From: a bacterium
GTDB taxonomy: Bacteria > Krumholzibacteriota > Krumholzibacteriia > LZORAL124-64-63
Assembly: GCA_024231905.1 (NCBI GenBank)
Contig: JAAEQC010000140.1
Span: forward strand, 56,566 to 120,565
DNA: 64,000 nt
Direction: 5' to 3'
A program made the translations under genes and the position numbers. The notes below the pieces were generated by a model that worked only from the letters and a program-made list of their open reading frames with translations, searched no databases and was not told the origin of the DNA. Shown piece after piece: positions 2-32,056 of this stretch. Positions within the stretch are counted from its first letter, which is position 1. Every line of letters starts with the position of its first letter.

Positions 2-1126
2 GTCCTTGAGGATCCCGTCCTCGAGCAGTTCGATGGCGAAGGCCATGGTCTGGGGGGCCGAGAAGGCGTCGACTCCGTGTTCGGTGGCCTTCTGGGCGAT
101 CCGCAGGCCGAATTCAAGGTCCGAGAAGGCACCCATGGTGTAGGTGAGCTTCGAGAAGCATTTCATCATGTAGGAGCACATGCGCGTGTCGACGCTGATG
201 GCCGCGCCGCACTTCATGGGGCAGTTGAAGCAGCTGAGCAGCCGGGTCCGCATGGAATCCATGGTCTTGGTCCACTCGTCCGCGACCTCCTCGGTCCAGA
301 AGCCCTTGCGGCGGACGCGGGCGTTACCCCAGACGAAGTTCTCGGTGTGCCATTTCTCGTCGTCGATGGCCATTTCCTGTGGGGAGCCGAGTCCCGCCAG
401 GATGGGCATCACGCCCTTGAGCGGGTTCTTGTCACGATGCTTGATGAACGCCAGCGATTCGTTGCAGAGTCCGATGAACCGGGCCGGGTCGGCGATGTGG
501 ATGTCCCCCGACCCGCGCACGGCGATCGCCTTGAGGTTCTTGTCGCCCATCACAGCGCCCAGGCCGAGGCGGCTGGCGCTGGATCTGCCCTGCTCGATGG
601 AGGCGTAGAAGACCCGGTTCTCGCCGGCCAGTCCGATGGAGGAGACCGCGGCGTCCGGCTGCTCGAGCTCCTGGCGGATGACCTCGGCGCTCTCGAGAGT
701 GCCCAGGCCCATGAGGTGCGACGCGTCCCGCAGTTCCACCTTGTCGTCGTGGATCCACAGGAAGACCGGCGCGGGGGACTTGCCGGAGAAGATCAACTTG
801 TCGTACCCGGCGCGCTTCAGCTCGGGGCCGAAGAACCCGCCCATGATGGAGAATCCGAACAGCCGGGTCTGCGGGGAGATGGCGGAGACGACCGTGCGGT
901 TGCAGCTGGGAGCAGGCGTCCCGGTCAGCAGACCGGTGCCGAAGATGAGCAGGTTCTCCGGGTCGAAGTGCCCGACCTCAGGCGGCACCCGATCCCAGAA
1001 CAGCTTGGCGTTGGTGCCCAGTCCCCCGAGATGGAGCTCGGTGAGCTGTGGATCCGTGGCTACTCGCTCGATATTCCCCCGGGCCAGATCGACTTCCAGG
1101 TTGAATCCCGTCTCGGCATATCTCAT
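2..1126 (-). CDS. bamB: Tungsten AOR-family protein, BamB type (class II benzoyl-CoA reductase catalytic subunit); 3' end runs off the window
   Basis: Manual minus-strand translation: MRYAETGFNLEVDLARGNIERVATDP...YASIEQGRSSASRLGLGAVMGDKNLKAI...LAGLGSPQEMAIDDEKWHTENFVWGNAR...SCFNCPMKC...YMMKCFSKLTYTM. It closely follows my recollection of Geobacter BamB. GGGGG RBS upstream. Absent from the ORF track because no stop lies in the window. Confidence 0.88.
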   Translation of the reverse strand, partial: MRYAETGFNLEVDLARGNIERVATDPQLTELHLGGLGTNAKLFWDRVPPEVGHFDPENLLIFGTGLLTGTPAPSCNRTVVSAISPQTRLFGFSIMGGFFGPELKRAGYDKLIFSGKSPAPVFLWIHDDKVELRDASHLMGLGTLESAEVIRQELEQPDAAVSSIGLAGENRVFYASIEQGRSSASRLGLGAVMGDKNLKAIAVRGSGDIHIADPARFIGLCNESLAFIKHRDKNPLKGVMPILAGLGSPQEMAIDDEKWHTENFVWGNARVRRKGFWTEEVADEWTKTMDSMRTRLLSCFNCPMKCGAAISVDTRMCSYMMKCFSKLTYTMGAFSDLEFGLRIAQKATEHGVDAFSAPQTMAFAIELLEDGILKD

Positions 1127-1229
1127 GCGTTTCCCCCACGGTCGTTGGACCGGCTCTCGAGCTCGTGGGCGCGGATCATGTAGGCGGCTGGTCGTTGACG
1201 CGCGTCTCGAGGGGTGTCGCCGATTCCAA

Positions 1230-1287
1230 TCGAACGTTCGTTCGAAACCTACCGCTGGAACCTATTCGATCCGCGAGAGGCTGTCAA
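1230..1287 (-). promoter_or_regulatory. sigma70 promoter of bamB with downstream palindromic operator
   Basis: Minus strand TTGACA (1287-1282), 17 nt, TAGGTT (1264-1259); perfect palindrome TCGAACG-TT-CGTTCGA at 1230-1245. Confidence 0.6.
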
Positions 1288-1351
1288 GCGTGAACAGTCC
1301 CAGAAGTGCGGGAAACCGGAATTCGGAGACGAAAGCGGGTCTTCGGTGCGA

Positions 1352-2014
1352 TCAACCGGCCCAGGGTCCGAGCAGCCAGACTGCCAGGCAGGCCATGACC
1401 GCCGTGCGTAGAGCCCCGCGCGGATGAAACGCCGCCCGTCGGGACAGCCGGCGGCCGAGCCAGAGGCCGATCGGAACGACGACCACGGCGGCCAGGGCGC
1501 CGCGACCTCCCGAATACAGTGTGTGCTCACCGACGCGCGCGAGCCCGCCGTCGGCCCAGTATCCGTACTCGAAGATCCAAACCATGGCGGCGGCGAAGAA
1601 CAGGCAGCTCAGGAAAGCGCCGACCACTCCGGTCGAGGCGGCCCGGACGTAGGGCCCACGATCGTCCCGCCACAGGAGGCTGGCCGCCAGATCGAACGCG
1701 AAGCCCAGCAGGGCGATACCCGCCAGGTGACAGATGAAAGGAGCGGTGTTGACGGACTTGAAGAGCACGGCGATCGCGGCGACTGCCGTCGAGGAGCCCG
1801 GCCGGTTCACAAGGGTCCGCGCGACGGCCAATCCGCACAGGGCCGCGGCCGTGAGCCAGACCGTTTCGCCACCGACAAGTTCAGTCAATCCCCAGGCGGA
1901 ACCCAGCAGGAGCAGGCAGGCCAGGCGCCAACCGGTCAGCCGCGCCGGTTGTTGGGAGTCCTGGTTTTCGGGCTGGATATCATATTGGTACAAGATCCCC
2001 TCCTCGGCATCCAC
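1352..2014 (-). CDS. Hypothetical integral membrane protein
   Basis: About 6 hydrophobic segments; the true start may be the TTG just after GAGGAG. Confidence 0.7.
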   Translation of the reverse strand: MDAEEGILYQYDIQPENQDSQQPARLTGWRLACLLLLGSAWGLTELVGGETVWLTAAALCGLAVARTLVNRPGSSTAVAAIAVLFKSVNTAPFICHLAGIALLGFAFDLAASLLWRDDRGPYVRAASTGVVGAFLSCLFFAAAMVWIFEYGYWADGGLARVGEHTLYSGGRGALAAVVVVPIGLWLGRRLSRRAAFHPRGALRTAVMACLAVWLLGPWAG

Positions 2015-2097
2015 GTCCCCCGATCAACGCCCGGATCCTAGCACGAATTCCGGTGTGGATCGAGCGGCCGGCAGGGCGCAGGGATCTCTACCGCCGG

Positions 2098-2544
2098 TCA
2101 GCCCCGGGTCTCTGCCGCCTTGATCCTTCCCCGTCCCCAGACCAGGAAGTAGCGGAAGTTCGCCGTGGCGTGGCTGGAGATCACTGAGCAGAACGCGATG
2201 GCGGCGAGCACCCACACCGCCGCCGCCCCGAACGTGGGGAGAAAGGCCAGCAGGAGCAGCTTGACGGACGTCACCAGGCCACGCAGTTGCAGCAGGAAGG
2301 CGCCGCTCTCGTACAGGTCCAGACCGACCATCAGGAATCCGGAGAGCAACGCGGCCAGGAACCAGGGCCCGCGGGTCGCGGGCTCCACCTGGAAGACGAG
2401 GGCGCCGAGATAGACCCCAGCGAGGACCACGTGCGCCGCACGGGCGATCATCTTGACCCAGCGTTGACCGGCGTAACGTCGCGGCTCGGTAGGGATCAGG
2501 ATCCGAAACAACGGTCCGTGGGGAACATATTCCGGCTGTCTCAT
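2098..2544 (-). CDS. Hypothetical 4-TM membrane protein
   Basis: Hydrophobic helices, GGAGG RBS, co-oriented downstream of pit. Confidence 0.7.
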   Translation of the reverse strand: MRQPEYVPHGPLFRILIPTEPRRYAGQRWVKMIARAAHVVLAGVYLGALVFQVEPATRGPWFLAALLSGFLMVGLDLYESGAFLLQLRGLVTSVKLLLLAFLPTFGAAAVWVLAAIAFCSVISSHATANFRYFLVWGRGRIKAAETRG

Positions 2545-8826: not shown

Positions 8827-11763
8827 TTACCAGGGCGATGACCAGCGCGTGCCGAGACCCGGTCCCAGCAGGATGGCGTTGACGAACATGCGCTCCGTGT
8901 CGGCCATCCAGCGCCGGTAGGCCGGATGGTCGGCGAAGAGGATCACCTGGCCGCGGCCAAGGGCCTCGCGCGTGGCGTAGCCGGTGCTGGCGATGCGCGC
9001 CGCTCCCTCGGGCCAGAGCAGCCCGCCCAGGTGCAGGGCGTCCACCTCGGCGAAACGCGCGGCCACGCGCACCGGCGGCGTGGCCACCAGGGGCTCGCGG
9101 CGGCCGAACCAGGCGGTGGCCTCGTCGCCGAGACCGTAGTTGAGCCACGCCTCCGGGTCCAGTTCGACCCGCAGCATGGCGCCCCGGGGCATGAAGGTGC
9201 GCAGGCGGCCGTCGGCGGCGGCCAGGTCCTCGGGTGTGGGTTCACGACGACCCGGGGGCAGCACGGATTTCACCCATTCGGCCAGGGCCACGGGCGCACC
9301 GCCCAGGGGCGTGCCCTGGGCGACGCCGTCGGCGAAGGGGCGGGCGCCGGCACCCAAGAGAGGAGCCACGTCGTAGGGCGAGGTGCGGTCCGTCGGCGGT
9401 GTCTTCTTTTTCTTCTCATCGTCCGGCGCAGGACGGATGCCCACCGCCGCGGGCCGTCCGGCCGCCGCGGCCTCGTCCGCCGGGATGCTCCACACGGGCG
9501 TCGGGTAGTCGGTCACGGCCTGGCCCCGCAAGCGGGTGGTGGTCAGAGCCGTCTCGGTGTCGGCCAGCATGGCTGTACCGCCGCCCAGGCCGATGGCCGT
9601 GCCGCCGGCCTCGATCCAGCGCCGCAGCTTGTCGACGCCGCCGGGCCCCAGCAAGTGCCGGTAGCCGGCGGCCCCGCCCCAGATGGACGGGAAGACGAGC
9701 ACGTTGTAGCGCGACAGGTCGGTCCCGGCGAAGCGACCGATGTCCAGGGCGCTGAACCGCAGGTCGAGGTCCTGGTCCAGCAAGTGCCACACGTAACCGT
9801 AGGCCGAGGGGGCGACGGGCATGCCGGTCAGGACGGCCACCCGGGGCGCCACGAGCACGTCGAACTCGTTGCCGCCCAGGTCGGGACCCGATGTGGCGCG
9901 GGCGGTGCCCACGTGGTGGACCGCCAGATCGTGGCGGCGGGCGACGCTCAGCACGGTCTGCTGCAGGTCCTCCGGGTTCCCTTCCCGACGCAAGACAATG
10001 GCGCCGCGGTCGAAGGCCCGGCCGCCGACGGCGAAGGGCTTGGCCGCCACGCGCACCGTGACGCCGGCCTGCAGGAGGTCGACCAGGGCGGCGGGCGCCG
10101 CGTCGGGATTGCCGTCGTAGACGAGGGAGTTCCAGTCGTCCTCGGCCAGTTCCAGGGGGATGTTCCGGTGGGGGAACCAGGGCTGCCAGTCGCCGCCTGG
10201 AATCCGGCCGCTCCAGAAGGCGGGCACGCCCCGGGCCAGGGGCACCGACCAGGCCGTGGTCTCGTACAGGCGGCTGCCCTTGCCCTTCTCCAGGTACTTG
10301 CGCTCGTCCCGGAAGAAGACGTCGTCCATGGGCACGTGGGGATCGAGGATGACCCGCGCCAGGGCGCCGTCGGGCTGGTCCAGGCGGACCAGGAGCGTGC
10401 CAGCCTCCAGTTCCAGGTCGCTCTTCTCACCGGTGCGGGCGTCCGTCAAACTCTTGACCGTCGTGGAGGCCGCGAGGCTGAGGACTTCGATGCCCTGGTC
10501 CACCAGCTGGTTGGCCAAGGCCTGGGTACGTTCGGGCTGGCGCCCGTGGGGTGGGAAGATCCAGGCCCGCACCTTGCCTTCGGCGCCCCTCTTCGCGATG
10601 GCGCGCCGCGCGGCGTGGTGGTCGGACAGCACCTCGTCCGCGTGGTTCGCCAGGGAGGTGAGGTTCGCCACCGAGGAGGTGAGCTGATGCTCCACCGCCT
10701 GCCCGAAGGTGCGCAGGGTGCCGCCCCGTTTGCGTACATGGGTACCGGTGGTGCGGGACATCTCGTAGAGGATACCGACGGCGCCGTGGTAGCTGGCCCA
10801 GGAGGAGCCGTAGCCCGGGAAGAACTCCTCGTTCCATTCGCCGGTGAAGTAGGCGTAGCCGCGCTTGTCCAGGGCGGCGGCCTGGTCGTCGGAGAAGGGC
10901 CGCTCCCACTTGCGGGCGCTGGCCGGTAAGTGGGGATTGAACGGATGCCGCGGGGGCGGGAAGAGGTAGGTGGCGTTGGCGCCCATCTCGTGGCTGTCCA
11001 CCAGCAACTGGGGCAGCCAGCCGGCGATCTCCGCCGAGCGGCGGCTCTCGGGCTGGACCATGGAGAACCAGTCGCGGTTCAGATCGAAGAGATAGTGGTT
11101 GCCACGACCCCAGGGCCACACGGCCCGGTGGGAGAGGTCGTCCTGGTCCGGGTTGGCCGTGCGGTGGGCGAAGCTGGTGATCTGGGCCAGGTAGCGGGCG
11201 CGGCCGTCGGGGTTCTCGCAGGGGTCGATGAGGACCAGGAGCTTGTCGCGCAGATTCTTGGCGCGGTCGTCCTCGCCGGCAACGAGCCAGTGGGCCAGGA
11301 CGGCCGCTGCGTCGGTGCTGCTGAGCTCGTCGCCGTGGATGCCGTAGGCCATCCAGGCCACGGCCTTGTCGCCGGCCCGGGGCGCGGTGGCGGTGCGGGG
11401 ATCGAGGGTGTCTACGTGGCGGTCCCGGAAGGCGTCCAGCTCGGCAATGGTCGCTTCGTCGGAAACGGCCAGGATGACCAGCGGCCGGCCCTCGTGGCTG
11501 CGGGCGTACTCCAGGAGGCGGGCGCGGGGAGAAGCGTCAGCCAGGGCCTGGAAGTAGGCCAACACTTCGTCCGGCCGTAGCGGGCGCTCGGCCGGGGCGA
11601 CGCCGGTGGTTTCGACCTGGCTCGGCACTCCGGCGGCATACTCGGCGAAGGGAAGCAGGTCGGCCAAGGTCGGCGGAGCGAGACCTTCGTTGAGGCCGGC
11701 GGCCGAAGCGGCGGTGACACAGACCAGCAGGACCAGCAGCAGTGAGCGGACGGTGATACCCAT
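8827..11763 (-). CDS. Secreted M14 zinc carboxypeptidase
   Basis: IHGDE, NPDG, DLNRD and DSHE motifs; GATase-like C-terminal part; start MGITVRS. Confidence 0.9.
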   Translation of the reverse strand: MGITVRSLLLVLLVCVTAASAAGLNEGLAPPTLADLLPFAEYAAGVPSQVETTGVAPAERPLRPDEVLAYFQALADASPRARLLEYARSHEGRPLVILAVSDEATIAELDAFRDRHVDTLDPRTATAPRAGDKAVAWMAYGIHGDELSSTDAAAVLAHWLVAGEDDRAKNLRDKLLVLIDPCENPDGRARYLAQITSFAHRTANPDQDDLSHRAVWPWGRGNHYLFDLNRDWFSMVQPESRRSAEIAGWLPQLLVDSHEMGANATYLFPPPRHPFNPHLPASARKWERPFSDDQAAALDKRGYAYFTGEWNEEFFPGYGSSWASYHGAVGILYEMSRTTGTHVRKRGGTLRTFGQAVEHQLTSSVANLTSLANHADEVLSDHHAARRAIAKRGAEGKVRAWIFPPHGRQPERTQALANQLVDQGIEVLSLAASTTVKSLTDARTGEKSDLELEAGTLLVRLDQPDGALARVILDPHVPMDDVFFRDERKYLEKGKGSRLYETTAWSVPLARGVPAFWSGRIPGGDWQPWFPHRNIPLELAEDDWNSLVYDGNPDAAPAALVDLLQAGVTVRVAAKPFAVGGRAFDRGAIVLRREGNPEDLQQTVLSVARRHDLAVHHVGTARATSGPDLGGNEFDVLVAPRVAVLTGMPVAPSAYGYVWHLLDQDLDLRFSALDIGRFAGTDLSRYNVLVFPSIWGGAAGYRHLLGPGGVDKLRRWIEAGGTAIGLGGGTAMLADTETALTTTRLRGQAVTDYPTPVWSIPADEAAAAGRPAAVGIRPAPDDEKKKKTPPTDRTSPYDVAPLLGAGARPFADGVAQGTPLGGAPVALAEWVKSVLPPGRREPTPEDLAAADGRLRTFMPRGAMLRVELDPEAWLNYGLGDEATAWFGRREPLVATPPVRVAARFAEVDALHLGGLLWPEGAARIASTGYATREALGRGQVILFADHPAYRRWMADTERMFVNAILLGPGLGTRWSSPW

Positions 11764-12017
11764 GGGGGACTCCCGGATGGTGGGTTGGGATGGGCTCGAG
11801 TGCCGCAATATACCACAGTCGCAGGGCCGTGTCGGGGTCGGGAGAGGGAATGGCGTGACACACCGTAATTGTCTATTCGCCAACGTGGGTGGGACACTAA
11901 TGCGGCACACCATGTGTCATTCCAAGGCAACCTTCCGCCGAAAGCCCCCATATTCTATCAGCATTCAATCGAATCACGTAACGCCTTGAAATTCTGTGAT
12001 ATGGAGGCATCCCTGCG

Positions 12018-13268
12018 ATGAAGAAGAAACTCCTGTGGATCGGCGCCCCGGTTGTGGTGGTGGGTATCGTCATTATTAGCATGGCGATGCGCGGCGGCGG
12101 CGACGAGGCCCTCGAGGTGCAGACGGCCAAGGTGGACCGCCAGAAGATCGTGCAGAAGGTGAGCGCGACGGGAAAGATCCAGCCCAAATTGCAGGTGAAG
12201 GTCAGCGCCGACGTGAGCGCCAAGATCACCACATTGGCCGTGGTGGAGGGCCAGTGGGTGGAAGAGGGCACCTTCCTGGTCGAACTCGACCGGGAGCGCT
12301 ATCTCGCCGCCGTGGAAAGCGCCGAAGCGAATGTGCGATCCGTGCAGTCGAACGCGAAACTGGTGCGGGAGAACATGGGCCGGACCGAGAAGGAGTTCCA
12401 GCGTTCCAAGGAGTTGCTGGACCGGAATCTGGAGTCGGCCGCGACCTTCGAGGACAAGCAATCGGCGTATCAGGTGGAAGTGGCGCGCCACGAATCGGCT
12501 CTCTTCCAGGTGGAACAGGCCGAGGCCGCCCTCAAGCAGACCCGCGACGACCTTTCCAAGACGACGATCTACGCCCCCATGTCGGGAACCATCAGCGACC
12601 TGCGCAAGGAGCAGGGCGAGATCGCCATCGGCTCCCAGTTCCAGGAGGACGTCATCCTGGTCATCGCGGATCTCTCGGAGATGGAGACTCAGGTCAACGT
12701 GGACGAGAACGACATCATCTCCATCGCGGTGGGCCAGCATGCGGACATCGAGGTGGACGCGCTTCTGGACCAGGTGCTGACGGGCGTGGTGGCGGAGATC
12801 GCCAGCAGTGCCAACATCGCCGGTGCCGGAAGTACGGACCAGAAGACCGAATTCGAGATCAAGATCAGCATCGTGAATCCGCCGGAGACCCTCCGCCCGG
12901 GGATGACCGCGAGCGCCGAATTGTTCACCAAGACCAACGAGAACGCGCTGAGCGTGCCGATCCAGAGCGTGGCGGTCAGAACGGTCGATCAACTGGTGAT
13001 GGCGGGCGAGAATCGGGCCGATGCGGAAGAACGCTACACCGCCGATCGCGACGGATTCGTGGAGATCGTGTTCTGCATCGAGGACGGCATGGCCATGGCC
13101 AAACAGGTGACCGCCGGGATCCAGAGTGACGAACTGATCGAGATCCTCACGGGTCTCGAGGAAGGCGAAGAGGTGGTCACCGGAAGCTACCGTGCCATAT
13201 CGCAGGACCTGGAGAACGGTGCCGTTGTCGATATTGCCAACGACACCGACAGAACGGGCGAGGTGTAG
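12018..13268 (+). CDS. Efflux periplasmic adaptor (MacA/HlyD-like)
   Basis: N-terminal TM, coiled coil, IYAPMSG, LRPGMTA. Confidence 0.92.
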
Positions 13269-13272
13269 ACCA

Positions 13273-14001
13273 GTGGCGCACACCAACGGGGGCACCATAC
13301 AGCCTGAAACGAGCTCCGCGCTTGCCCTGCGCGACGTGGTGAAGACCTACGACATGGGCACCGTGCAGGTCCAGGCCCTGCGTGGGGTGTCCCTCGACAT
13401 CGCCCGCAACGAGTACGTCTCCATCATGGGGCCCTCGGGATCAGGGAAGTCGACGTTGATGCACGTGATCGGCTGTCTCGACGTGCCGACCTCCGGCACC
13501 TACACGCTGGAGGGCCAGATGGTGGCTGAGATGTCAGAGAACCAGCTGGCGGAAATCCGCAACGAGCAGATCGGATTCGTGTTTCAGACTTTCAACCTCA
13601 TCCCGCGGGTGAGCATCTACCAGAACGTCGAGTTGCCGTTGGTCTATGCCGGCGTGTCTCGAGGGGAACGCCGCAGGCGCACGACGGCCGCGATCGAACG
13701 GGTGGGTCTTGCCGACCGCATAAAGCACAAGCCGAATGAGCTTTCCGGAGGACAGCGGCAACGCGTGGCCATCGCGCGCGCGCTGGTGTGCAACCCGTCG
13801 ATCATCCTCGCCGATGAGCCCACGGGGAACCTGGACAGCAAGACCGGCGCTGAGATCATGAATATTCTCGACGGATTGCATGCGGACGGACAGACGATCA
13901 TCCTGGTCACCCACGAGGACTACATCGCCAAGCACGCCCTCCGCACCGTGAGGCTCATGGACGGCATGATCGAGAGCGACTTGGAGGCCGTGGTCTCATG
14001 A
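13273..14001 (+). CDS. ABC ATP-binding protein (MacB/LolD-like)
   Basis: [26 protein letters not shown]; GTG start inferred. Confidence 0.93.
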
Positions 14002-15236
14002 GGCTGATGCGTGACATGGTCGATGCGTTCCGGATCGCCCTCTACGCCATGCGCGCCAACAAGGCGCGTGGAACCTTGACCACGCTGGGCATCATCATCG
14101 GCATTGTCGCGGTGATTCTCACCATGACGGCGGCCAACGGTCTGCAGAACACTTTCCGCCAGAGTTTCTCCTCGGTGGGCGCCGACGTCATCTATGTCTC
14201 GCGCATGCCCTGGGTGATCCAGGGCGATTTCTTCCTGTACCGGAACCGTCCACAGATCGATCTCAAGCAGGCCGACGAACTGGAGTCGAGGCTTCGCGGA
14301 AGAGGCATCGTCAATCCCACCATGGACACCGCCCGCGACGTTAAATACCGGTCCGAGACCCTGTCGGGACTGCGAATCATCGGCACGACCGACAAGCAGT
14401 CGATGGTGTCCAGCGCCCAGCCGGAAACCGGGCGCTTTCTTACGGAATTCGACGTCACCTACAAGAAGAACGTCTGCGTCATCGGTACCGACGTCCGCGA
14501 CGGGCTGTTCGGCTCAGCGAACCCGCTCAACAAATCCATCCACATCGGCCGCGCCCGGTTTCGGGTGATCGGCGTCATGGAGAAGCAGGGCGGGAGTTTC
14601 CTCGGCGGCCCCAATTTCGACAGGCAGATCTACATTCCGATCACTTCCTACGTGAAGGCGTACGGCGGTCATCGCGGGCGCCAGGGGGTGGACGTGGCCG
14701 TCAAGGCCCCGTCTCGGGAGGCCCTGGAAGAGCTGGAATTCGAAGTGATGGGGGAAATGCGCAAGATCCGTAAACTGCGCCCCGCAGAGGATGACAACTT
14801 CTCCATCAACAAGCTCGACACCCTGGTGGGCGCCTTCAACAACGTGATGGGTGTGGTGCTCCTGGTGGGGCTGCTCGTGACAAGCATCTCGCTGTTCGTC
14901 GGTGGCGTGGGTGTGATGAACATCATGTTCGTTTCAGTCACCGAGCGCACCAGGGAGATCGGCATCCGCAAATCCATCGGCGCCAAGCCCCGCAGCATCC
15001 TGTTTCAGTTCCTGTTCGAGTCGGCTTCCATATGCCTGCTGGGCGGGGTGATCGGCATCCTGGTGGCTTCCATTCTGACCGCGGTCATCAACAAGGTGCT
15101 GATGCCCGCGAGCGTGTCGTTTCCCATTCTGTTCATTGCCGTGGTGGTTTCCATCGCCGTGGGCGTGGTGGCCGGCCTGGTTCCGGCCTTCCGCGGTTCC
15201 CGACTCAATCCCATCGAGGCGCTCCGGTATGAATAG
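13998..15236 (+). CDS. ABC permease (MacB/FtsX-like)
   Basis: [21 protein letters not shown]; PIEALRYE. Confidence 0.93.
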
Positions 15237-15259
15237 CGCCCAACGCAGGAGTCCCAGCC

Positions 15260-16504
15260 ATCAGTCTTCTTGACGCATTCACCATGTCCTTCGGGGCGAT
15301 TGTCAGGAACAAGCTGAGGTCGGTCCTGACGCTGGTCGGGATCGTCGCCGGGGTGGCCTCCATCATCGCGGTGATGACTGCCATATCGGTGGTGCAATCC
15401 ACCATGGAGAAGGAAATGAGCGTCTTGGGGGCGCAGGTCTTCCAGGTCCAGAAGTGGCCCGCCGGATTCAACTCCGACGAGGAACGGCGCCGGGCCATGC
15501 GGCGTCCGGCCCTGACCGTGGAGAACGCCAATACGATCCGTGAGCGGGTATCGACCGTGGACCTGGTGGGATCTGAGATCTGGGACTTCGGATATGCCGT
15601 CGAGTACCGGGGTGAATCCACCAACGCGAACAGTTCCATCGTCGGCGGCACGCCCGAGTACCCGGCCAACAACACCCACTATGTCGGCCAGGGCCGCAAC
15701 ATCTCCCAGATCGACGTCAAGAATCACCACAAGGTGGCCGTCATCGGCTTCGGAATAGGGCAGGAGCTGTTTCCCTTCACCGATCCCGTGGGCAAGGATG
15801 TGCGCATGGACGGGCGCAAGTACCGGGTCATCGGGGTCTTCGACGAAAAGAACTCCGCTTTCGGGGGAAGATTCGACCAATACGTCTTGATTCCGGTGAC
15901 CACATTCCTCGATACGTACGGCATGGTGGGGCGCGGCGGGTTTCAGCGGTCGGTCAATATCACGGTCCGCGCGAAGACGCCCGAACTCGCCGCCGATGCC
16001 CTCGAGGAAACGCGGCAACTGATGCGGCGCGAACGCGGCCTGAAGGCGAACGAGGAAGACGATTTCGACTTCTTCAGCAGCGAAAGCCTGATCACCGAGT
16101 TCAACGAGATGACCCAGGGCGTGAAACTCGCGGCCTTCGTCATCGGGATCATTGCGCTGATCGTGGCCGGAATCGGCATCATGAACATCATGCTGGTCTC
16201 GGTGACCGAGAGGACCCGGGAGATCGGGATCCGCAAGTCTCTCGGCGCCAAACCCCGGAGCATCCTCCTTCAGTTCCTGCTGGAGGCCGTCATCCTGTGC
16301 AACATCGGCGGCGTCGTCGGTGTCATGGCGGGCTTCGGGATGGGAAACGTCGTTACCCTGTTCGCTCCCTTCGACGTCAACGTTCCCATGGAGTGGGCGG
16401 TCATCGGACTCGTCTTCTGCTCAGCGGTGGGTATCAGTTTCGGTCTGTTGCCCGCCGTTCGGGCATCCAGGCTGAATCCTGTCGACGCACTCAGCTACGA
16501 ATAG
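15260..16504 (+). CDS. ABC permease (MacB/FtsX-like); start either ATC at 15260 or ATG at 15284
   Basis: [21 protein letters not shown]; AGGAG RBS 8 nt before an in-frame ATC. Confidence 0.9.
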   Translation: MSLLDAFTMSFGAIVRNKLRSVLTLVGIVAGVASIIAVMTAISVVQSTMEKEMSVLGAQVFQVQKWPAGFNSDEERRRAMRRPALTVENANTIRERVSTVDLVGSEIWDFGYAVEYRGESTNANSSIVGGTPEYPANNTHYVGQGRNISQIDVKNHHKVAVIGFGIGQELFPFTDPVGKDVRMDGRKYRVIGVFDEKNSAFGGRFDQYVLIPVTTFLDTYGMVGRGGFQRSVNITVRAKTPELAADALEETRQLMRRERGLKANEEDDFDFFSSESLITEFNEMTQGVKLAAFVIGIIALIVAGIGIMNIMLVSVTERTREIGIRKSLGAKPRSILLQFLLEAVILCNIGGVVGVMAGFGMGNVVTLFAPFDVNVPMEWAVIGLVFCSAVGISFGLLPAVRASRLNPVDALSYE

Positions 16505-16563
16505 ACCGGCTGGGTGGCTGCAGGCCGGGTGCGGCTCACCGGTCACCGACCTGCCTCGGGCGT

Positions 16564-16668
16564 CTATTGCTTCTTCTCTTTCTTGGCTTTTCGTTTTTCC
16601 TTTGGGCTGAGCAAGGCCTTCTTCTGGGTTTCCTTTTTGCCCTTGTCTTTCTTTCCCTTGTCACCCAT
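16564..16668 (-). CDS. 34-aa lysine-rich small protein
   Basis: MGDKGKKDKGKKETQKKALLSPKEKRKAKKEKKQ with AAGGAG RBS 8 nt upstream. Confidence 0.7.
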   Translation of the reverse strand: MGDKGKKDKGKKETQKKALLSPKEKRKAKKEKKQ

Positions 16669-16868
16669 ATCGGTTTCTCCTTGTTCGAAAATCCATTGGC
16701 CCGAATCACAACTGTGAGTATTCACGGGATATATGCTCCCGGTCAACCTGTCCCTGTCCCGCCCTTTCCTCCATCCGGGGATCACATGGCCGCTAGCGCC
16801 TTATTTCTTTGCCGCTGGGTCTGAGATTCCGAGTTCTCATTCTAGTCCAGTTTGCGGAGCCAACTCGT

Positions 16869-17381
16869 CTATTGCGTCGATGGAGCCAACTGCATCCCCA
16901 ACTGCATCATTAGCCCGAGATTGTCCTCGAGAGCCCAGCACTCGTCGATCTTGCCGTCGACGATTCTAATGATCTGGGCACCCGCATAGCGGACCTCGTT
17001 ACCTGTAGGCGGGATTCCCTCGAAGTCGCCTTGGTGAGTCGCGTTGTAGGAGAACTTCGCTGCCACGAGATTGTCTTCGGCGACGAGTTCTTCGATCGTG
17101 TGCGTGTAGTCCGGAAAAGCGGAGTAGAAGCCACGAATGAGATCGAGCGTCATGCCACGAGATAGTGGTTCCGGCATTCCTACATACATGAGGTTGAAAT
17201 CCTCGGTCAATAGACTCTCGATCTCTCCATAATCCTGCACATCGATAGCCGCATAGAGTTGCCTGACGAGTTCCTTGTTCTCCGATTCTGTATTGCGTTG
17301 GTCGGCCAGACAGCCCAGGCAGAGAACGATCGAGAGGATGCCCAGAATAGCGGAAGATCGTTGGGAAATAGCCATGACCAC
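16869..17381 (-). CDS. SnoaL-like ester cyclase (NTF2 fold) with signal/lipoprotein peptide
   Basis: NKELVR, AFPD, THQGDFEGIPPTG, MQLG; visibly lower GC than its neighbours. Confidence 0.88.
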   Translation of the reverse strand: MVMAISQRSSAILGILSIVLCLGCLADQRNTESENKELVRQLYAAIDVQDYGEIESLLTEDFNLMYVGMPEPLSRGMTLDLIRGFYSAFPDYTHTIEELVAEDNLVAAKFSYNATHQGDFEGIPPTGNEVRYAGAQIIRIVDGKIDECWALEDNLGLMMQLGMQLAPSTQ

Positions 17382-26995: not shown

Positions 26996-28825
26996 ATGCC
27001 CGATCGCCGCGATCAACGCCTCGTGCTCGTCCTGGCCGTGGGCCTCGTGCTGGTCACCGGTGGGCTCTTCGCCCGCACGGCCACTTTCGAGTTCCTCCAG
27101 TACGACGACGACCGCTTCGTTTACGACAACCCGGCCCTGGCCGAGGGGCTCACCGCCGACGCCATTGCCTGGTCGTTCACCACCGACCACGCCGCCTTGT
27201 GGATCCCCGGCACCTGGCTCTCCCACCTGGCCGACGTGCAACTCTTCGGCCTGCGCCCGGGGCCCCACCACCTGGTGAACGTCTTGCAGCACGTGCTGAC
27301 GACGTTGCTGCTCTTCGGCGCCCTACGGGCCATGACCGGCGCCGTCCGACGGTCCGCCCTGGTGGCCGCCCTCTTCGCCTGGCACCCGGGACACGTGGAA
27401 TCGGTGGCCTGGGTGACCGAACGCAAGGACACCCTCAGCACCCTCTTCCTGGTGGCGGCCCTCTGGGCCTACCACCGCTGGACCGTGCGGCGCACTCGCG
27501 GCCGCTACCTGGTGCTGCTGGCCTGGGCGGTGCTCGGGCTCCTGACCAAGCCCATGCTCGTGACCCTGCCGGTGCTGCTGCTCCTGGTGGACGTCTGGCC
27601 CCTGGGACGCACGGACTGGCGCCGCCTCGTCCGGGAGAAGAGCCCGCTCTTCGCCCTGGCCGCCGCCGTGGGCGCCGTGACCTTCGTTGTGGGACAGCGC
27701 GGGGGCATCGTGGCGTCCATGTCCGAGTTGGGCCTCGGCCCGCGGTTGGTGAACGCCGTCGTCTCCTACGCCCAGTACCCGCTGCAGATGGTGTGGCCGG
27801 TGGGACTGTATGCCCAGGTGCCCTTCCGGCTGACGGCGCCAGCGGGGCTGGTCATCGCCTCGGCGGTCTTTCTCCTGGCCGTCGGCTGGGCGAGCATCCG
27901 CTACGCCCGTCGCGCGCCCTACCTGTTCTTCGGCTGGTGGTGGTATGTGATCTCCCTGCTGCCGGTCTCGGGCCTGGCCCAACAGGGAGTCCACGGCATG
28001 GCCGACCGGTACACCTACGTGTCCTTCATCGGTCTCTTCGTGATCGTGGCCTGGGGCGGGGCGGATCTGGCGCGTCGCCTGCGGGTTCCGCGACCGGCGG
28101 TGGCGACTCTCGTGGCGGTGGTCCTGGTGGCCCTGGCCTGGGTCACCCACGCCCAGGTGGGTGTGTGGCGGAACAACCTCACCCTCTTCGAGCACGCTTT
28201 GGCGCGAAACCCGGACAATCCCATGGCCCACACCTTCCTGGGCCTGGGACTCGAGGTGCGCGACCGCCCGGTCGAGGCAGCGGCGGCCTACGGTCGGGCC
28301 ATCGACCTGAACCCCGATCACCACGTGGCCCGCTTCCAACTGGGCCGGCTCCTGGCCCAGCAGGGCGACCCGGCCGGCGCGGTCCGGCATTACGAAGCCT
28401 CGCTGATCGCCTACGAGGACGCCGCCGACGTCCGGCGTGACCTGGGCAACCAGTACTTCCTGCTGGGAGATCACGAGCGGGCGGCTGCGCATCTGGAGCG
28501 CGCCCTCGAGCTGGAACCGGGCAACCGGGGGGCCATGACCAATCTGGCCCTGGCGTGCCTGGCCCGGGAGGAATTCGATGAGGCGGAGACCCTTCTCCAG
28601 GAGGTGGCGTCGGCGGCGCCAGAGGATCCCCACGTGCGCTACAACCTGGCCTGCGTGGCCGCGCGCCAGGGCCGGGCGGCGGCTGCTGCGGTACGCCTGG
28701 AGGAAGCTCTCGACCTGGGGTTCACAGCCTGGGAGGCCATCGAAGCGGACCCGGACCTGGCCCGCCTGCGCGCCTCGCCCGAGTACGCGGATCTCAGAAG
28801 CCGGCGTGCTCCGTCCGGGCGATGA
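26996..28825 (+). CDS. TMTC-like GT-C membrane protein with C-terminal TPRs
   Basis: YDD, HVESVAWVTERKD, ADRYTY, WRNN..LF, TPR repeats. Confidence 0.85.
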   Translation: MPDRRDQRLVLVLAVGLVLVTGGLFARTATFEFLQYDDDRFVYDNPALAEGLTADAIAWSFTTDHAALWIPGTWLSHLADVQLFGLRPGPHHLVNVLQHVLTTLLLFGALRAMTGAVRRSALVAALFAWHPGHVESVAWVTERKDTLSTLFLVAALWAYHRWTVRRTRGRYLVLLAWAVLGLLTKPMLVTLPVLLLLVDVWPLGRTDWRRLVREKSPLFALAAAVGAVTFVVGQRGGIVASMSELGLGPRLVNAVVSYAQYPLQMVWPVGLYAQVPFRLTAPAGLVIASAVFLLAVGWASIRYARRAPYLFFGWWWYVISLLPVSGLAQQGVHGMADRYTYVSFIGLFVIVAWGGADLARRLRVPRPAVATLVAVVLVALAWVTHAQVGVWRNNLTLFEHALARNPDNPMAHTFLGLGLEVRDRPVEAAAAYGRAIDLNPDHHVARFQLGRLLAQQGDPAGAVRHYEASLIAYEDAADVRRDLGNQYFLLGDHERAAAHLERALELEPGNRGAMTNLALACLAREEFDEAETLLQEVASAAPEDPHVRYNLACVAARQGRAAAAAVRLEEALDLGFTAWEAIEADPDLARLRASPEYADLRSRRAPSGR

Positions 28826-31151
28826 TCTCGTCCTGCAGTTCCCGTGACAGATCGCAGAAGTAGTCGCTGTAGCCGGCCACCCGCACGATGAGGTGCCGGT
28901 GCTGCTCGGGGGCGTCCTGGGCCCGGTGCAGGGTGTCGGCGGTGACCACGTTGAACTGCACGTGATGCCCGTCCTGGGCGAAGTAGCCCCGCACGAGTCC
29001 GGCCATGCGGTCCAGACCCGCCTCGCCCTCCAGCACCTGGGGGCTGAACTTGAGGTTCAGCAGGGTCCCGCCCGTCTTCACGTGGTCCATCTTGGCCGCC
29101 GACTGAAGGACCGCCGTGGGTCCCTTGCGGTCGGCGCCCTGGACGGGGGAGATGCCTTCCGAAAGCGGCTGATGGGCGCGCCGTCCGTCCGGGGTCGCGC
29201 CGATGACCGAGCCGAAGTAGACGTGGCAGGTCGTCGGCAGCATGTTCACGTGGACGGTGCCGCCGCGGCCGTTGGGCCGTCCGTCCACGCAGCGGAAGAA
29301 GGCGCCGAAGATGTGCTGCATGAAGCGGTCGGCCCGGTCGTCGTCGTTGCCGTACTTGGGGGGCTTGTTCACCAGGAGTTGGCGCAGGGGTTCAGCGCCG
29401 GCGAAGTCGGCGGCCATGGCGTCCAGCAACGCGCCCATGCCCACGCGCCCGGTGGCGAAGACCAGGTGGTCCAGGGCCGCCAGACTGTCGGTCAACGTGC
29501 CGGTACCCACGCCCTGGATGTAGCTCGTGTTGTAGCGGGCGCCGCCGGCATTGTAGTCCCCGCCCTTGGCGATGCAGTCGTCGATGAGGAGCGACAGGTA
29601 GGGCGCCGGTGCGTGTTCGGCGAAGGTGGTTTCGAGGATGGCGTTGCCTGCCACCTTGATGCCGATGAAGTGTTCGAGCTGGCCTTCCCAGGCCCGCAGC
29701 ACCTGGTCCATGGATTCGAAATCGCGGGGGTCGCCCGTGGGTGGGCCGAGCTGCTCGCCCGTCCGCGGATCGCGCCCGTCGTGGAGGACGAGTTCCAGGA
29801 GCTTGGCCAGGTTGAAATACCCGGTGAGGACGTAGGCCTCCTTGCCGAAGGCTCCCGTCTCCACGCAGCCGCTGTTGCCGCCGGCGCGGGCGTCCGTCAG
29901 GGACTTGCCCTGCCGCATCAGTTCCTTGACCACCGCGTCGGCGTTGAACACGGAGGGGAATCCGTACCCCTTGCGGATGACCCCGGCGGCGGCCTGCAGG
30001 AAGCGGTCCGACGTCTCCGTCGAGATCTGCACGTTGTTGCTGGGCTGGAGGATGTGCATCTCGTCGATGACCTCCAGCAGCAGGAGGCTCACCTCGTTGC
30101 TGGCGTCCCGACCGTCGGGAGTCAGGCCGCCCAGGTTGATGTTGGCGAAATCCGTGTAGGTGCCGCTCTCCTGCGCGGTCACACCCACCTTGGGCGGGGC
30201 CGGGTGGTTGTTGAACTTCACCCAGAAGCACTCGAGCAGTTCCTTGGCGCGGTCGCGGTTCAGGGTGCCGGCGGCCAGTTCGCGGGCGTAGAAGGGACCC
30301 AGGTGCTGGTCCAGGTGACCGGGGCTGAAGGCGTCCCAACCGTTCAACTCGGTGACGACTCCCAGGTGGTGGAACCAATAGGCCTGCAGCGCTTCGCGGA
30401 AGGTCTCAGGACGGTGGGCGGGCACCCGCGTGCACACGGCGGCGATGGTCTCCAACTCGACCCGGCGGCTCGGATCGTCGCAGGCGGCGGCCAGCTCCTG
30501 CGCCCGTTCGGCGTGGCGGCGGGCGAAGAGCATGGTCGCGTCGGCGGCGATGCGCATGGCCGTCAGCTGGTCGCGGCGGGCGGGGGAGTCCGGGGCGGCC
30601 GGGTCGAGCCCGGCCAGGACCACATCGATCTCCGCTTGCAGGTCGAGCAGACCCTTCCGGACGAATTTGTCGTCGGCCACCGTGTGGCCGGGCGCCCGCT
30701 GTTCCATGAACTCGGTGAAGACGCCGGCGGCGTAGGCCGCGTGCCACTCGTTTGGCAGGGAAGGGAAGGCCCGGTCCCGAATGGAACGGCCGCGCCAGAA
30801 GGGGATGACCGTCTCCTCGTAGGCGGCGATCACCGACTCGTCTACGGCGTAGCTCGTCTTCTCCCGGGCGTCGAGGATGCGCAGGTCTTCAGTCGAGTGG
30901 CAGGTGAGTTCGGGAAACGTGGGCACGACCAGGGGTGCGGGGCCGCGCTCGCCCACGATGAGTTCGTCGTCGCCCAGGTGGATCGTCTTATGGGCGCAGA
31001 GATACTGGAAAGCCAGGGCCCGGAGCACCGGCACCGGATGCTTGCCTTCCTCGCGCCGGTAGAAATCCGTGAGCAGGAGGGCGCGTTCGGCCGAGATGGA
31101 CGGCCGGGAGGCCAGGCTCCGGTCGCGCAGGCGTCGGACTCTCGTGTTCAT
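28794..31151 (-). CDS. hypD: Glycyl radical enzyme, trans-4-hydroxy-L-proline dehydratase type
   Basis: EFMEQRAPGHTV, ESGTYTDFANIN, SGCVE, YVLTGY, LPTTCHVYFG, RVAGYS; GGAGG RBS. Confidence 0.88.
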   Translation of the reverse strand: MNTRVRRLRDRSLASRPSISAERALLLTDFYRREEGKHPVPVLRALAFQYLCAHKTIHLGDDELIVGERGPAPLVVPTFPELTCHSTEDLRILDAREKTSYAVDESVIAAYEETVIPFWRGRSIRDRAFPSLPNEWHAAYAAGVFTEFMEQRAPGHTVADDKFVRKGLLDLQAEIDVVLAGLDPAAPDSPARRDQLTAMRIAADATMLFARRHAERAQELAAACDDPSRRVELETIAAVCTRVPAHRPETFREALQAYWFHHLGVVTELNGWDAFSPGHLDQHLGPFYARELAAGTLNRDRAKELLECFWVKFNNHPAPPKVGVTAQESGTYTDFANINLGGLTPDGRDASNEVSLLLLEVIDEMHILQPSNNVQISTETSDRFLQAAAGVIRKGYGFPSVFNADAVVKELMRQGKSLTDARAGGNSGCVETGAFGKEAYVLTGYFNLAKLLELVLHDGRDPRTGEQLGPPTGDPRDFESMDQVLRAWEGQLEHFIGIKVAGNAILETTFAEHAPAPYLSLLIDDCIAKGGDYNAGGARYNTSYIQGVGTGTLTDSLAALDHLVFATGRVGMGALLDAMAADFAGAEPLRQLLVNKPPKYGNDDDRADRFMQHIFGAFFRCVDGRPNGRGGTVHVNMLPTTCHVYFGSVIGATPDGRRAHQPLSEGISPVQGADRKGPTAVLQSAAKMDHVKTGGTLLNLKFSPQVLEGEAGLDRMAGLVRGYFAQDGHHVQFNVVTADTLHRAQDAPEQHRHLIVRVAGYSDYFCDLSRELQDEIIARTEHAGF

Positions 31152-31153
31152 GG

Positions 31154-32056
31154 TCATCCTCCGCAGGTCACGGCCAGGCCGCGGTCGGTGAAGGTGCGGA
31201 CGGCGCGCTCCAGATCCTCGGGATGGGGCGCGGCCGTGCCGATCAGTTCGTAGACGAGACCGAGGCGGTCGTACTTGTCGGCGCCGGTGGTGTGGTAGGG
31301 CAGCAACTGGATCTCTGGCTGCTGGGGAAAGTCGGCTACGAAGGCGGCGGTGGCCTCCAGGTTGGCCGGCGTGTCGGTCAGGCCGGGGATGAGGGGCAGG
31401 CGGACCTGGATCCTCCCGCCGGTGCGGACCAGCAGTCGCAGGTTCTCGTGGATGCGTCCGTTGCCCATGCCGCACCGCCGGCGGTGCTCGGCGGCATCCA
31501 TGAGCTTCAGGTCGAAGAGCACGAGGTCGGTCAGGGAGGCTGCGTCGAGCAGGAGATCCGTATCCACGTGCCCGCAGGTGTCCACGGCGGTCTTCACGCC
31601 GCGGCGGCGCAGTTCGGCCAGGCATTCCAGCACCAGGGACGCGTTGGCTCCCGACAGGGGTTCGCCGCCGGAGAAGGTGACGCCGCCGCCGGTGGTTCCG
31701 AAGTAGACCTGGTCCCGCAGGATTTCCGCCAGCAACTCGTCGGCGGACCAGGTGCGCCCCAGCAGGTCGCGGGCTCCCGTGGGGCAGGCGTCGGCGCAGT
31801 CGCCACAGGAGACGCAGTCGGCGGCCGCGGGCACGTCCAGGGGGCCGGCCGCGCCCTGGTCGCACACGGGTGTGCAGGCCTCACAGCCCAGACAACGATC
31901 GGCCAGCAGGGCCAGCTGGGGCCGGTAGTCCCAACTCTCGGGATTGTGGCACCAGGAGCAGCGCAGGGGACAGCCCTTGAGGAAGACGGTCGTGCGGATG
32001 CCCGGCCCGTCGTGCAGGCTGAAGCGCTGGATGTTGAACACCGTGGCCGTACTCAC
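31154..32056 (-). CDS. Glycyl-radical activating enzyme (radical SAM with ferredoxin insert)
   Basis: HDGPGIRT, GCPLRCSWCHNPE, two CxxCxxCxxxC clusters, SGGEP. Confidence 0.93.
   Translation of the reverse strand: MSTATVFNIQRFSLHDGPGIRTTVFLKGCPLRCSWCHNPESWDYRPQLALLADRCLGCEACTPVCDQGAAGPLDVPAAADCVSCGDCADACPTGARDLLGRTWSADELLAEILRDQVYFGTTGGGVTFSGGEPLSGANASLVLECLAELRRRGVKTAVDTCGHVDTDLLLDAASLTDLVLFDLKLMDAAEHRRRCGMGNGRIHENLRLLVRTGGRIQVRLPLIPGLTDTPANLEATAAFVADFPQQPEIQLLPYHTTGADKYDRLGLVYELIGTAAPHPEDLERAVRTFTDRGLAVTCGG

Follow-up and report, generated by a model that had tools for sequence, protein, structure and literature searches.

Does the minus-strand reading frame at the left edge of this stretch of DNA encode the ring-reducing subunit of a benzoyl-CoA reductase of class II, and does it belong to a host outside the groups from which such enzymes are usually described? 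The window, by which we mean the whole 64,000-nucleotide stretch analysed here, covers positions 56566-120565 of contig JAAEQC010000140.1 (hereafter C140), and the frame occupies window positions 2..1126. A preliminary description, made from the letters alone, had taken it for BamB, the tungsten-containing subunit of the class II enzyme, in an unexpected lineage. Judged from its sequence, the frame is the 5' part of a genuine bamB gene, which is predicted to encode the catalytic tungsten-bis-pyranopterin subunit. We put at about 0.9 the probability that a true BamB heads a bamBCDEFGHI-tupABC-moeA cluster, inside a pathway island, in an uncultured, GC-rich bacterium of the Fibrobacteres-Chlorobi-Bacteroidetes (FCB) group; the activity and the role of the enzyme would follow from homology.

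Identity of the protein

The frame is 375 codons long and was recognized in the list of open reading frames (ORFs), by Pfam and by alignment to a PDB chain. It begins with an ATG at window position 1126 and has no stop before the left edge. As the frame is open at its 3' end, the gene runs past the window, and the complete bamB lies at C140:55682-57691 on the minus strand and encodes 669 residues. The CxxCxxxC motif (as SCFNCPMKC), the KCF motif (as MMKCF) and the segment SPQEMAIDDEKWHTENF, all three named in the preliminary description, are present in the translated frame. GC content at third codon positions is 0.89, a codon bias that marks a real gene in a genome of 66.7% GC.

In a phmmer search against PDB chains, the 375 residues alone matched 4z3w_A (‘Benzoyl-CoA reductase, putative’) with E = 7.4e-185 and 1aor_A with E = 9.2e-48. 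With the full protein, for which nine PDB sequences matched at E <= 1e-20, residues 1-652 aligned with residues 1-651 of 4z3w_A at 1067.6 bits; the next PDB match was 1aor_A at 198.4 bits. Counted by hand from the alignment, about 445 of the 652 residues (68%) are identical to 4z3w_A, and about 71% across the first 375. The Geobacter metallireducens enzyme (PDB 4Z3W-4Z40; Bam[(BC)2DEFGHI]2) has a BamB of similar length, which differs in one residue fewer near position 313. Pfam found AFOR_N (PF02730, 229 bits) and AFOR_C (PF01314, 183.6 bits) in the complete protein, and AFOR_N (231.5 bits) plus AFOR_C in the window part. These two domains, the [4Fe-4S] cysteine motif and the tungsten-bis-pyranopterin fold family are shared with the aldehyde:ferredoxin oxidoreductase (AOR) of Pyrococcus furiosus (1AOR) and with the WOR family. 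However, AORs oxidize aldehydes, they work without BamD-I partners, and according to passages of the review PMC12096430 they lack the tungsten-binding cysteine and the Glu251/His260 relay. Only a single AOR-family gene was matched in the whole genome.

We also compared the protein with its relatives at large. A phmmer search over 1.84 billion representative proteins returned 7429 relatives at E <= 0.001, among which the score dropped from 947 bits and 61% identity (P0001) to 549 bits and 45% (P0004), and then to at most 430 bits and 41%. In a scan of genome contigs, tblastn confirmed 197 of the 213 stretches that matched; of these, we kept the 80 best, at 61-90% identity, as related loci (designated by L numbers). 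An AOR-family tree was then built with a quick IQ-TREE run (LG+G4) on 76 rows: the window protein, 30 loci taken across the identity range and the first 45 full-length representatives (580-700 residues). To limit the size of the tree, the other 50 of the 80 loci were omitted, as were the remaining 67 of the 112 full-length representatives. The BamB group had been defined beforehand by the residue signature described below, and support was measured by the SH-like approximate likelihood ratio test (SH-aLRT) only. The window protein and the other rows that carry the signature, 32 in all, formed one side of a branch with an SH-aLRT of 99. Within it, the window protein clustered with L004, L005 and L010, in sets of 6, 8 and 9 rows that were all starred. 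By PDB score and by tree, then, the protein groups with BamB and not with generic AOR/WOR enzymes.

Catalytic residues

In the AOR family, the cysteines of the CxxCxxxC motif bind a [4Fe-4S] cluster. Here the motif reads CFNCPMKC (window 209..232, minus strand) and aligns with CYNCPMKC of 4z3w_A; its first two cysteines are kept in all 31 of the BamB-clade rows shown. Cys323, in MMKCF (window 158..160, minus strand), aligns to YMMKCF of 4z3w_A and corresponds to Cys322 in the BamB of G. metallireducens, the numbering being shifted by a one-residue insertion. As described in parts of PMC12096430, Cys322 in the KCF motif is the protein ligand of tungsten in Geobacter BamB. The same parts of that paper state that in the substrate-free enzyme Zn2+ is held by the ‘invariant’ Glu251, His255, Glu257 and His260, that His255 is among the Zn ligands that rearrange upon substrate binding, and that His260 and Glu251 then lie, as proton donors, by C3/C4 of the ring.

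The corresponding Zn-site and proton-relay loop of our protein is E251-M-A-I-D255-D-E257-K-W-H260 (EMAIDDEKWH; window 347..376, minus strand, from the translation and the alignment to 4z3w_A). The protein keeps Glu251, Glu257, His260 and the tungsten-ligand cysteine, all in common with the Geobacter enzyme, and differs from it at position 255, where Asp (AIDDEK) stands opposite His255 (KVHDEK). The preliminary description had noted this exchange, and it is real.

Residue counts were made on 81 rows, the window protein and the translated BamB of the 80 related loci. The tungsten-ligand cysteine, His260 and Glu257 were each found in 81 of 81 rows, and Glu251 in 79. Position 255 was His in 55 rows, Asp in 8 (the window protein, L004, L005, L006, L009, L014, L015 and L017) and Val, Thr, Ile, Tyr or Cys in the remaining 18. 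Several rows without His255 have a histidine one position earlier, and the rows without it include loci labelled Syntrophus that have the usual operon. Since His255 occurs in only 55 of 81 orthologues that otherwise keep the signature and, wherever enough flanking sequence exists, the operon, we do not treat it as defining for BamB. Among the 76 rows of the tree, the full set of Glu251, Glu257, His260 and cysteine is present in every row of at least 61% identity except L083, which has Ala at 251. By contrast, Glu251, Glu257 and His260 are missing or unaligned in all 44 of the representatives shown at 49% identity or less, none of which has the full set. Many representatives that are not BamB also have a cysteine in the tungsten-ligand column, so this feature is necessary but not sufficient.

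The bam operon

The genes to the left of the window were examined in L002, which is C140:38001-57800, and partners were assigned from Pfam domains. The genes bamCDEFGHI lie directly downstream of bamB, on the same strand and in the expected order, which is also that of G. metallireducens; the preliminary description had proposed looking for them there. The BamC-like protein has a 4Fe-4S ferredoxin-like (Fer4) domain (L002 17143-17685), and the BamD-like protein has CCG and Fer4 domains (15951-17141). The BamE-like protein carries two Pyr_redox units and Fer4 (within 12868-16206), BamF is FlpD/MvhD-like with a helix-turn-helix (12083-12790), and BamG is a thioredoxin-like [2Fe-2S] protein (within 11619-12821). 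These are followed by a BamH-like protein with a Nuo51 FMN/NADH domain (9692-11611) and a BamI-like protein with Fer2_4 (within 9108-10184). All seven are encoded on the minus strand. Among the 80 related loci, BamC follows BamB in 76, and the order bamB-I is colinear by tblastn in 23; contig ends break off many of the rest.

The bamF gene contains an in-frame TGA at C140:50818-50820 (L002:12818-12820, minus strand; FLCNW-U-AYSAAD, residue 18). When the TGA is read as selenocysteine, the translation gives MTGPGHTPRIVAFLCNW-U-AYSAAD, with the TGA 18 codons from the ATG. Aragorn found a tRNA-SeC elsewhere in the genome, at C218:179137-179234. In Geobacter BamF, as a 2026 preprint on the Geobacter complex describes in part of its text, Sec19 lies near the [2Fe-2S] cluster and there is a helix-turn-helix of the winged type. 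The TGA of bamF, as a predicted selenocysteine codon, corresponds to this Sec19, and the two proteins also share the winged-helix tail. Plain ORF calling cuts bamF short at the TGA.

Directly after bamI, the locus has genes for a TupA-like binding protein (235.7 bits against an NCBIfam cut-off of 400), a TupB-like permease (175.3 bits against 320) and an ABC ATPase that matches the TupC model (120.3 bits against 400). A MoeA gene on the same strand follows them. Tungstate transport had also been suggested as something to look for, and the tupABC-like genes, with scores below the equivalog cut-offs, appear to supply it. By gene content, bamB heads a complete predicted class II benzoyl-CoA reductase operon; the use of tungsten is predicted by homology, and the adjacent Tup-like and MoeA genes would fit it as indirect support.

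The benzoyl-CoA pathway island

The bam cluster lies within an island of about 47 kb that also encodes other enzymes of the pathway. The oah/bamA gene is at C140:12413-13480 (TIGR03200, 579 bits, cut-off 464.45), had is at C140:24503-25546 (TIGR03201, 430 bits, cut-off 338.65), and a gene of the benzoate-CoA ligase family is at C140:36858-38369 (TIGR02262, 613-614 bits, cut-off 375.25). Thus bamA and the ligase, both of which the preliminary description had proposed to seek genome-wide, are on the contig of bamB itself and above their cut-offs, as is had. The island also has a weak dch candidate and beta-oxidation genes. It encodes an acyl-CoA dehydrogenase, thiolases and a FadB-like protein.

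Other genes of aromatic or acyl-CoA type are found in the same region. Adjoining bamA/oah, at C140:13690-17405, is a pair that resembles 4-hydroxybenzoyl-CoA reductase and consists of an FAD subunit and a fused gamma-alpha subunit, which scored 892.7 bits with TIGR03194, just under the cut-off of 994.55. Genes of the 2-hydroxyacyl-CoA dehydratase/class I reductase superfamily, an activase and an ADP-forming acyl-CoA ligase are at C140:21209-23623 and 27259-31472. The BcrB-like and activase-like genes among them have scores far under the Bcr equivalog cut-offs and look like relatives of 2-hydroxyacyl-CoA dehydratase. Automated pipelines might label them bcr. One of the 2-hydroxyacyl-CoA-dehydratase-like genes is fused to a 2-dehydropantoate-reductase-like domain.

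The host genome

The genome comprises 4.63 Mb in 236 contigs, with 94.74% completeness, 0.81% contamination and 66.7% GC; contig C140 is 194,633 bp long. An RF00177 search found no 16S rRNA gene in this 94.74%-complete genome. Sorting tails for type IX secretion are characteristic of the FCB group. Such a tail is present on a protein encoded at C140:8201-10801 (TIGR04183, 30.1 bits, cut-off 23), less than 50 kb from bamB, and a weaker tail of the PorZ type is present on a protein at C140:2670-5420. These two large proteins physically tie the bam island to FCB-type genes.

RpoB was compared with the genomes behind five loci only, and the NCBI labels of these metagenome-assembled genomes (MAGs) may be rough. 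Identity was 81% to the L004 genome, which is of the same family and labelled Fibrobacteraceae, 64% to that of L052 (Latescibacterota), 60% to that of L008 (Gemmatimonadota), 55% and 44% in two pieces to that of L006 (Planctomycetaceae) and 50% to that of L015 (Planctomycetota). Three loci that agree with same-family genomes in match coordinates and identities are labelled ‘uncultured Fibrobacteraceae bacterium’, a name that belongs to Fibrobacterota in the FCB group at NCBI; we regard the label as rough, and Krumholzibacteriota or an adjacent FCB phylum may fit the features as well. The sorting tails on C140 and the RpoB identities thus support an FCB-type host. An FCB-related host had been suspected from the start, with Desulfobacterota as the lineage that would speak against it; the data do not support the latter origin.

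A BamB-type match at E <= 1e-150 was found in 11 of 208 species genomes of the host phylum, a small one, counting this genome. Within the family, 6 of 90 other genomes had such a match; among good-quality genomes the figure was 8 of 125. The six in the family, from four other genera, have BamB proteins that are 81-90% identical to ours.

The genome also has three matches to the heme-copper oxidase family, at C94:29834-31126, C165:79770-81080 and C199:184067-185401. The first is a cbb3-type subunit I (TIGR00780, 629.3 bits, cut-off 583.15); of the other two, one is aa3-like and under the cut-off, and for the last NCBIfam gave no match at E <= 1e-20. A search of the genome for cytochrome bd oxidase found none. 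Since heme-copper oxidase genes are present, one of them a cbb3 gene above cut-off, the host seems able to respire low oxygen and would not be a strict anaerobe by gene content. Geobacter species also carry oxidase genes, and the oxidase is therefore only a mild surprise.

Alternative explanations

Several observations weigh against a true BamB with its operon and pathway in an FCB-group host. NCBIfam has no BamB model, and the sole NCBIfam match is the generic AOR equivalog, with 182-192 bits against a cut-off of 868. Together with the Pfam domains, which are the general ones of AORs, this match would fit a generic AOR/WOR enzyme that has no part in ring reduction. But the score is far under the cut-off, and a library without a BamB model cannot settle membership. 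Moreover, PDB scores to BamB are five times those to AORs, the representatives at 49% identity or less lose the Glu251/Glu257/His260 signature and fall outside the clade, and seven Bam partner genes are present beside bamB. We consider the probability of a generic AOR close to negligible. A further point is that G. metallireducens BamB was not itself a row of the tree, which included the Desulfuromonadales-labelled L044 and L056; the link to it comes from the PDB searches. The three Tup-like proteins are all under their equivalog cut-offs. The dch/bamR candidate (C140:20533-21249) has TIGR03189 as its top family, but its 157-159 bits fall short of the cut-off of 292.5 and hardly exceed its scores with generic enoyl-CoA hydratase models. 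Finally, the cbb3 oxidase gene is at odds with the picture of class II enzymes in an excerpt of PMC7701123, which places them in strict anaerobes that reduce iron or sulfate.

The remaining adverse point, Asp255, departs from a Zn ligand that the relevant part of PMC12096430 calls invariant. The preliminary description took the exchange as a hint of altered specificity, and it is conceivable that this BamB-type reductase is tuned to another aryl-CoA, such as a substituted benzoyl-CoA, or is gated differently. The residue replaced is a ligand that rearranges with substrate in that account, and the island has a 4-hydroxybenzoyl-CoA-reductase-like gene and other aryl-CoA-type genes, so that several aromatic substrates may be funnelled into it. 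However, position 255 is variable among the 81 orthologues, including Syntrophus-labelled loci with the same operon, and His260 and Glu251 at the ring site and the tungsten cysteine are conserved; the hint is therefore unsupported. The only AOR-family gene of the genome also adjoins benzoate-CoA ligase, had and oah, and Asp, too, can bind Zn. We judge altered specificity unlikely. Less probable again is that the contig was misbinned and that the bam island comes from Desulfobacterota, Planctomycetota or a similar phylum. Binning errors are common in MAGs, and BamB is 82-85% identical to loci labelled Planctomycetota or Gemmatimonadota whose genomes reach only 50-60% in RpoB. Yet proteins with type IX sorting tails are encoded on the same contig, the GC content of the bamB-I stretch (0.660) and of the island (0.658) matches that of the genome (0.667), BamB is carried by six other genomes of the family, from which the nearest tree rows also come, and the contamination estimate (of the CheckM type) is low. 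With GC, contig neighbours and relatives in agreement, misbinning of this genome seems very improbable, and we retain a true BamB in an FCB-type host.

Distribution and possible transfer

The lineage proved less unexpected than it first appeared. The best 80 related loci carry labels of Planctomycetota, Gemmatimonadota, Myxococcota, Thermodesulfobacteriota, Acidobacteriota, Chloroflexota, Latescibacterota, Binatia, Spirochaetota and Pseudomonadota. Because confirmed relatives are labelled with so many phyla, we conclude that predicted BamB proteins outside the classical deltaproteobacterial groups are common in MAG collections. The claim of an unexpected lineage therefore holds in the sense that the host is little documented in print, and it is overstated in that BamB orthologues occur in genomes labelled with more than 10 phyla. 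In the sections concerned, a mangrove study reports bamBC only in two Desulfobacterota among six representative MAGs, one of which is a Zixibacteria MAG (PMC11704145), and PMC10936416 reports bcr but not bamB in a Krumholzibacteriota bin and neither bcr nor bam genes in 37 representative FCB genomes. Word searches of the open-access literature, supplements aside, found no report that assigns a class II reductase to a lineage of the FCB group, although one may exist. The Bcr-type reductase, which catalyses the same reaction in the same pathway and is reported from an FCB candidate phylum in part of PMC10936416, differs in being an unrelated, ATP-driven protein family.

The closest BamB proteins of other phyla come from MAGs of high GC content with the labels Planctomycetota, Gemmatimonadota, Myxococcota and Thermodesulfobacteriota (L006-L017). 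They are 78-85% identical to ours, fall in the same starred subclade (9-13 rows) and have the same operon order; L008 and L009 also have tupA/tupB-like genes after bamI, and L006, L009, L014, L015 and L017 share Asp255. The host phyla differ, with RpoB 50-60% identical in the three genomes tested. In the same genome pairs BamB identity is high (85% to L006, 83% to L008 and 82% to L015) and RpoB identity is low (55/44%, 60% and 50%). Conversely, L052, labelled Latescibacterota, is closer in RpoB (64%) and less similar in BamB (71%). In the tree, the BamB proteins of the family are nested among rows with the labels Planctomycetota, Gemmatimonadota, Thermodesulfobacteriota and Myxococcota. The high BamB and low RpoB identities suggest that the bam cluster has been transferred between phyla, with misbinning in some of the MAGs of other phyla as an alternative. 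Elsewhere among the loci, the BamB genes of L047 and L048, from MAGs labelled Binatia and Sulfuritalea, are nearly identical (end branches of 0.019 and 0.023), which suggests either a very recent transfer or an error of binning or labelling.

Tentatively, we propose that a bamBCDEFGHI(-tup) cassette may have moved as a unit among unrelated GC-rich phyla of soil and groundwater (the FCB-type host and those labelled Planctomycetota, Gemmatimonadota and Myxococcota) and here coexists with a high-affinity cbb3 oxygen reductase; we rate this somewhat below even odds. If it is true, ATP-independent, bifurcation-driven ring reduction would not be confined to the classical strict anaerobes, bacteria of little-known phyla with a microaerobic or facultative way of life would use it too, and the Asp255 subclade might have a modified Zn gate.

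Proposed model

Based on the better-known Geobacter system, we have considered how the enzyme may work. According to a 2026 preprint on the Geobacter complex, NADH and reduced ferredoxin supply electrons that BamGH(I) brings together, and BamF hands these on to the FAD of BamE, where bifurcation takes place. One electron, of high potential, then exits via BamD to an electron-transferring flavoprotein; the other, of low potential, travels via BamC to the tungsten cofactor that BamB carries. In the active site, according to passages of PMC12096430, the substrate displaces Zn, and a hydrogen atom from tungsten-bound water to C4 and a proton from His260 yield the 1,5-dienoyl-CoA.

With the enzyme of G. 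metallireducens as a guide, we propose that BamB of our locus pairs with the ferredoxin-like BamC. A BamGHI module, which would use NADH and ferredoxin and is HydBC-like, may feed a BamDEF module. The latter, a predicted flavin-based bifurcating unit that resembles heterodisulfide reductase, would supply electrons of very low potential to BamB. BamB would then reduce benzoyl-CoA to cyclohexa-1,5-diene-1-carbonyl-CoA, with the hydrogen atom and the proton coming from tungsten-bound water and His260. The set of subunits and the key residues are found at the locus, and we infer the electron path and the chemistry by homology.

The enzyme described here is an ordinary one, although its host is little documented, and the finding leaves the understanding of how the enzyme acts unchanged. 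Accounts of the class II system usually concern iron reducers, sulfate reducers and syntrophs. The host differs from G. metallireducens, a Desulfuromonadales iron reducer, in being an uncultured FCB-type bacterium with 66.7% GC and a cbb3 gene. An FCB-type lineage would thus join the candidate degraders of lignin-derived or pollutant aromatics in anoxic soils and sediments, with a system that appears intact down to the selenocysteine BamF, the tungstate transporter and the downstream pathway. In view of the oxidase gene, one may ask whether strict anaerobes are really the only bacteria to use this oxygen-sensitive system.

Sequence around the start of bamB

Upstream of bamB, an intergenic leader of 225 nucleotides (window 1127..1351, minus strand) was read directly from the sequence. 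A consensus scan of window 1000-2200, around the start of bamB, found no sigma-70-like promoter or intrinsic terminator. A purine-rich GGGGGA is present at window 1132-1137, 5 nucleotides ahead of the ATG. Opposite bamB, an ORF of 393 residues runs along the plus strand at window 2..1183. Its codon GC content (0.87 at first and 0.61 at third positions) is the mirror image of a coding pattern, and we therefore regard this ORF as a shadow frame and not as a gene.

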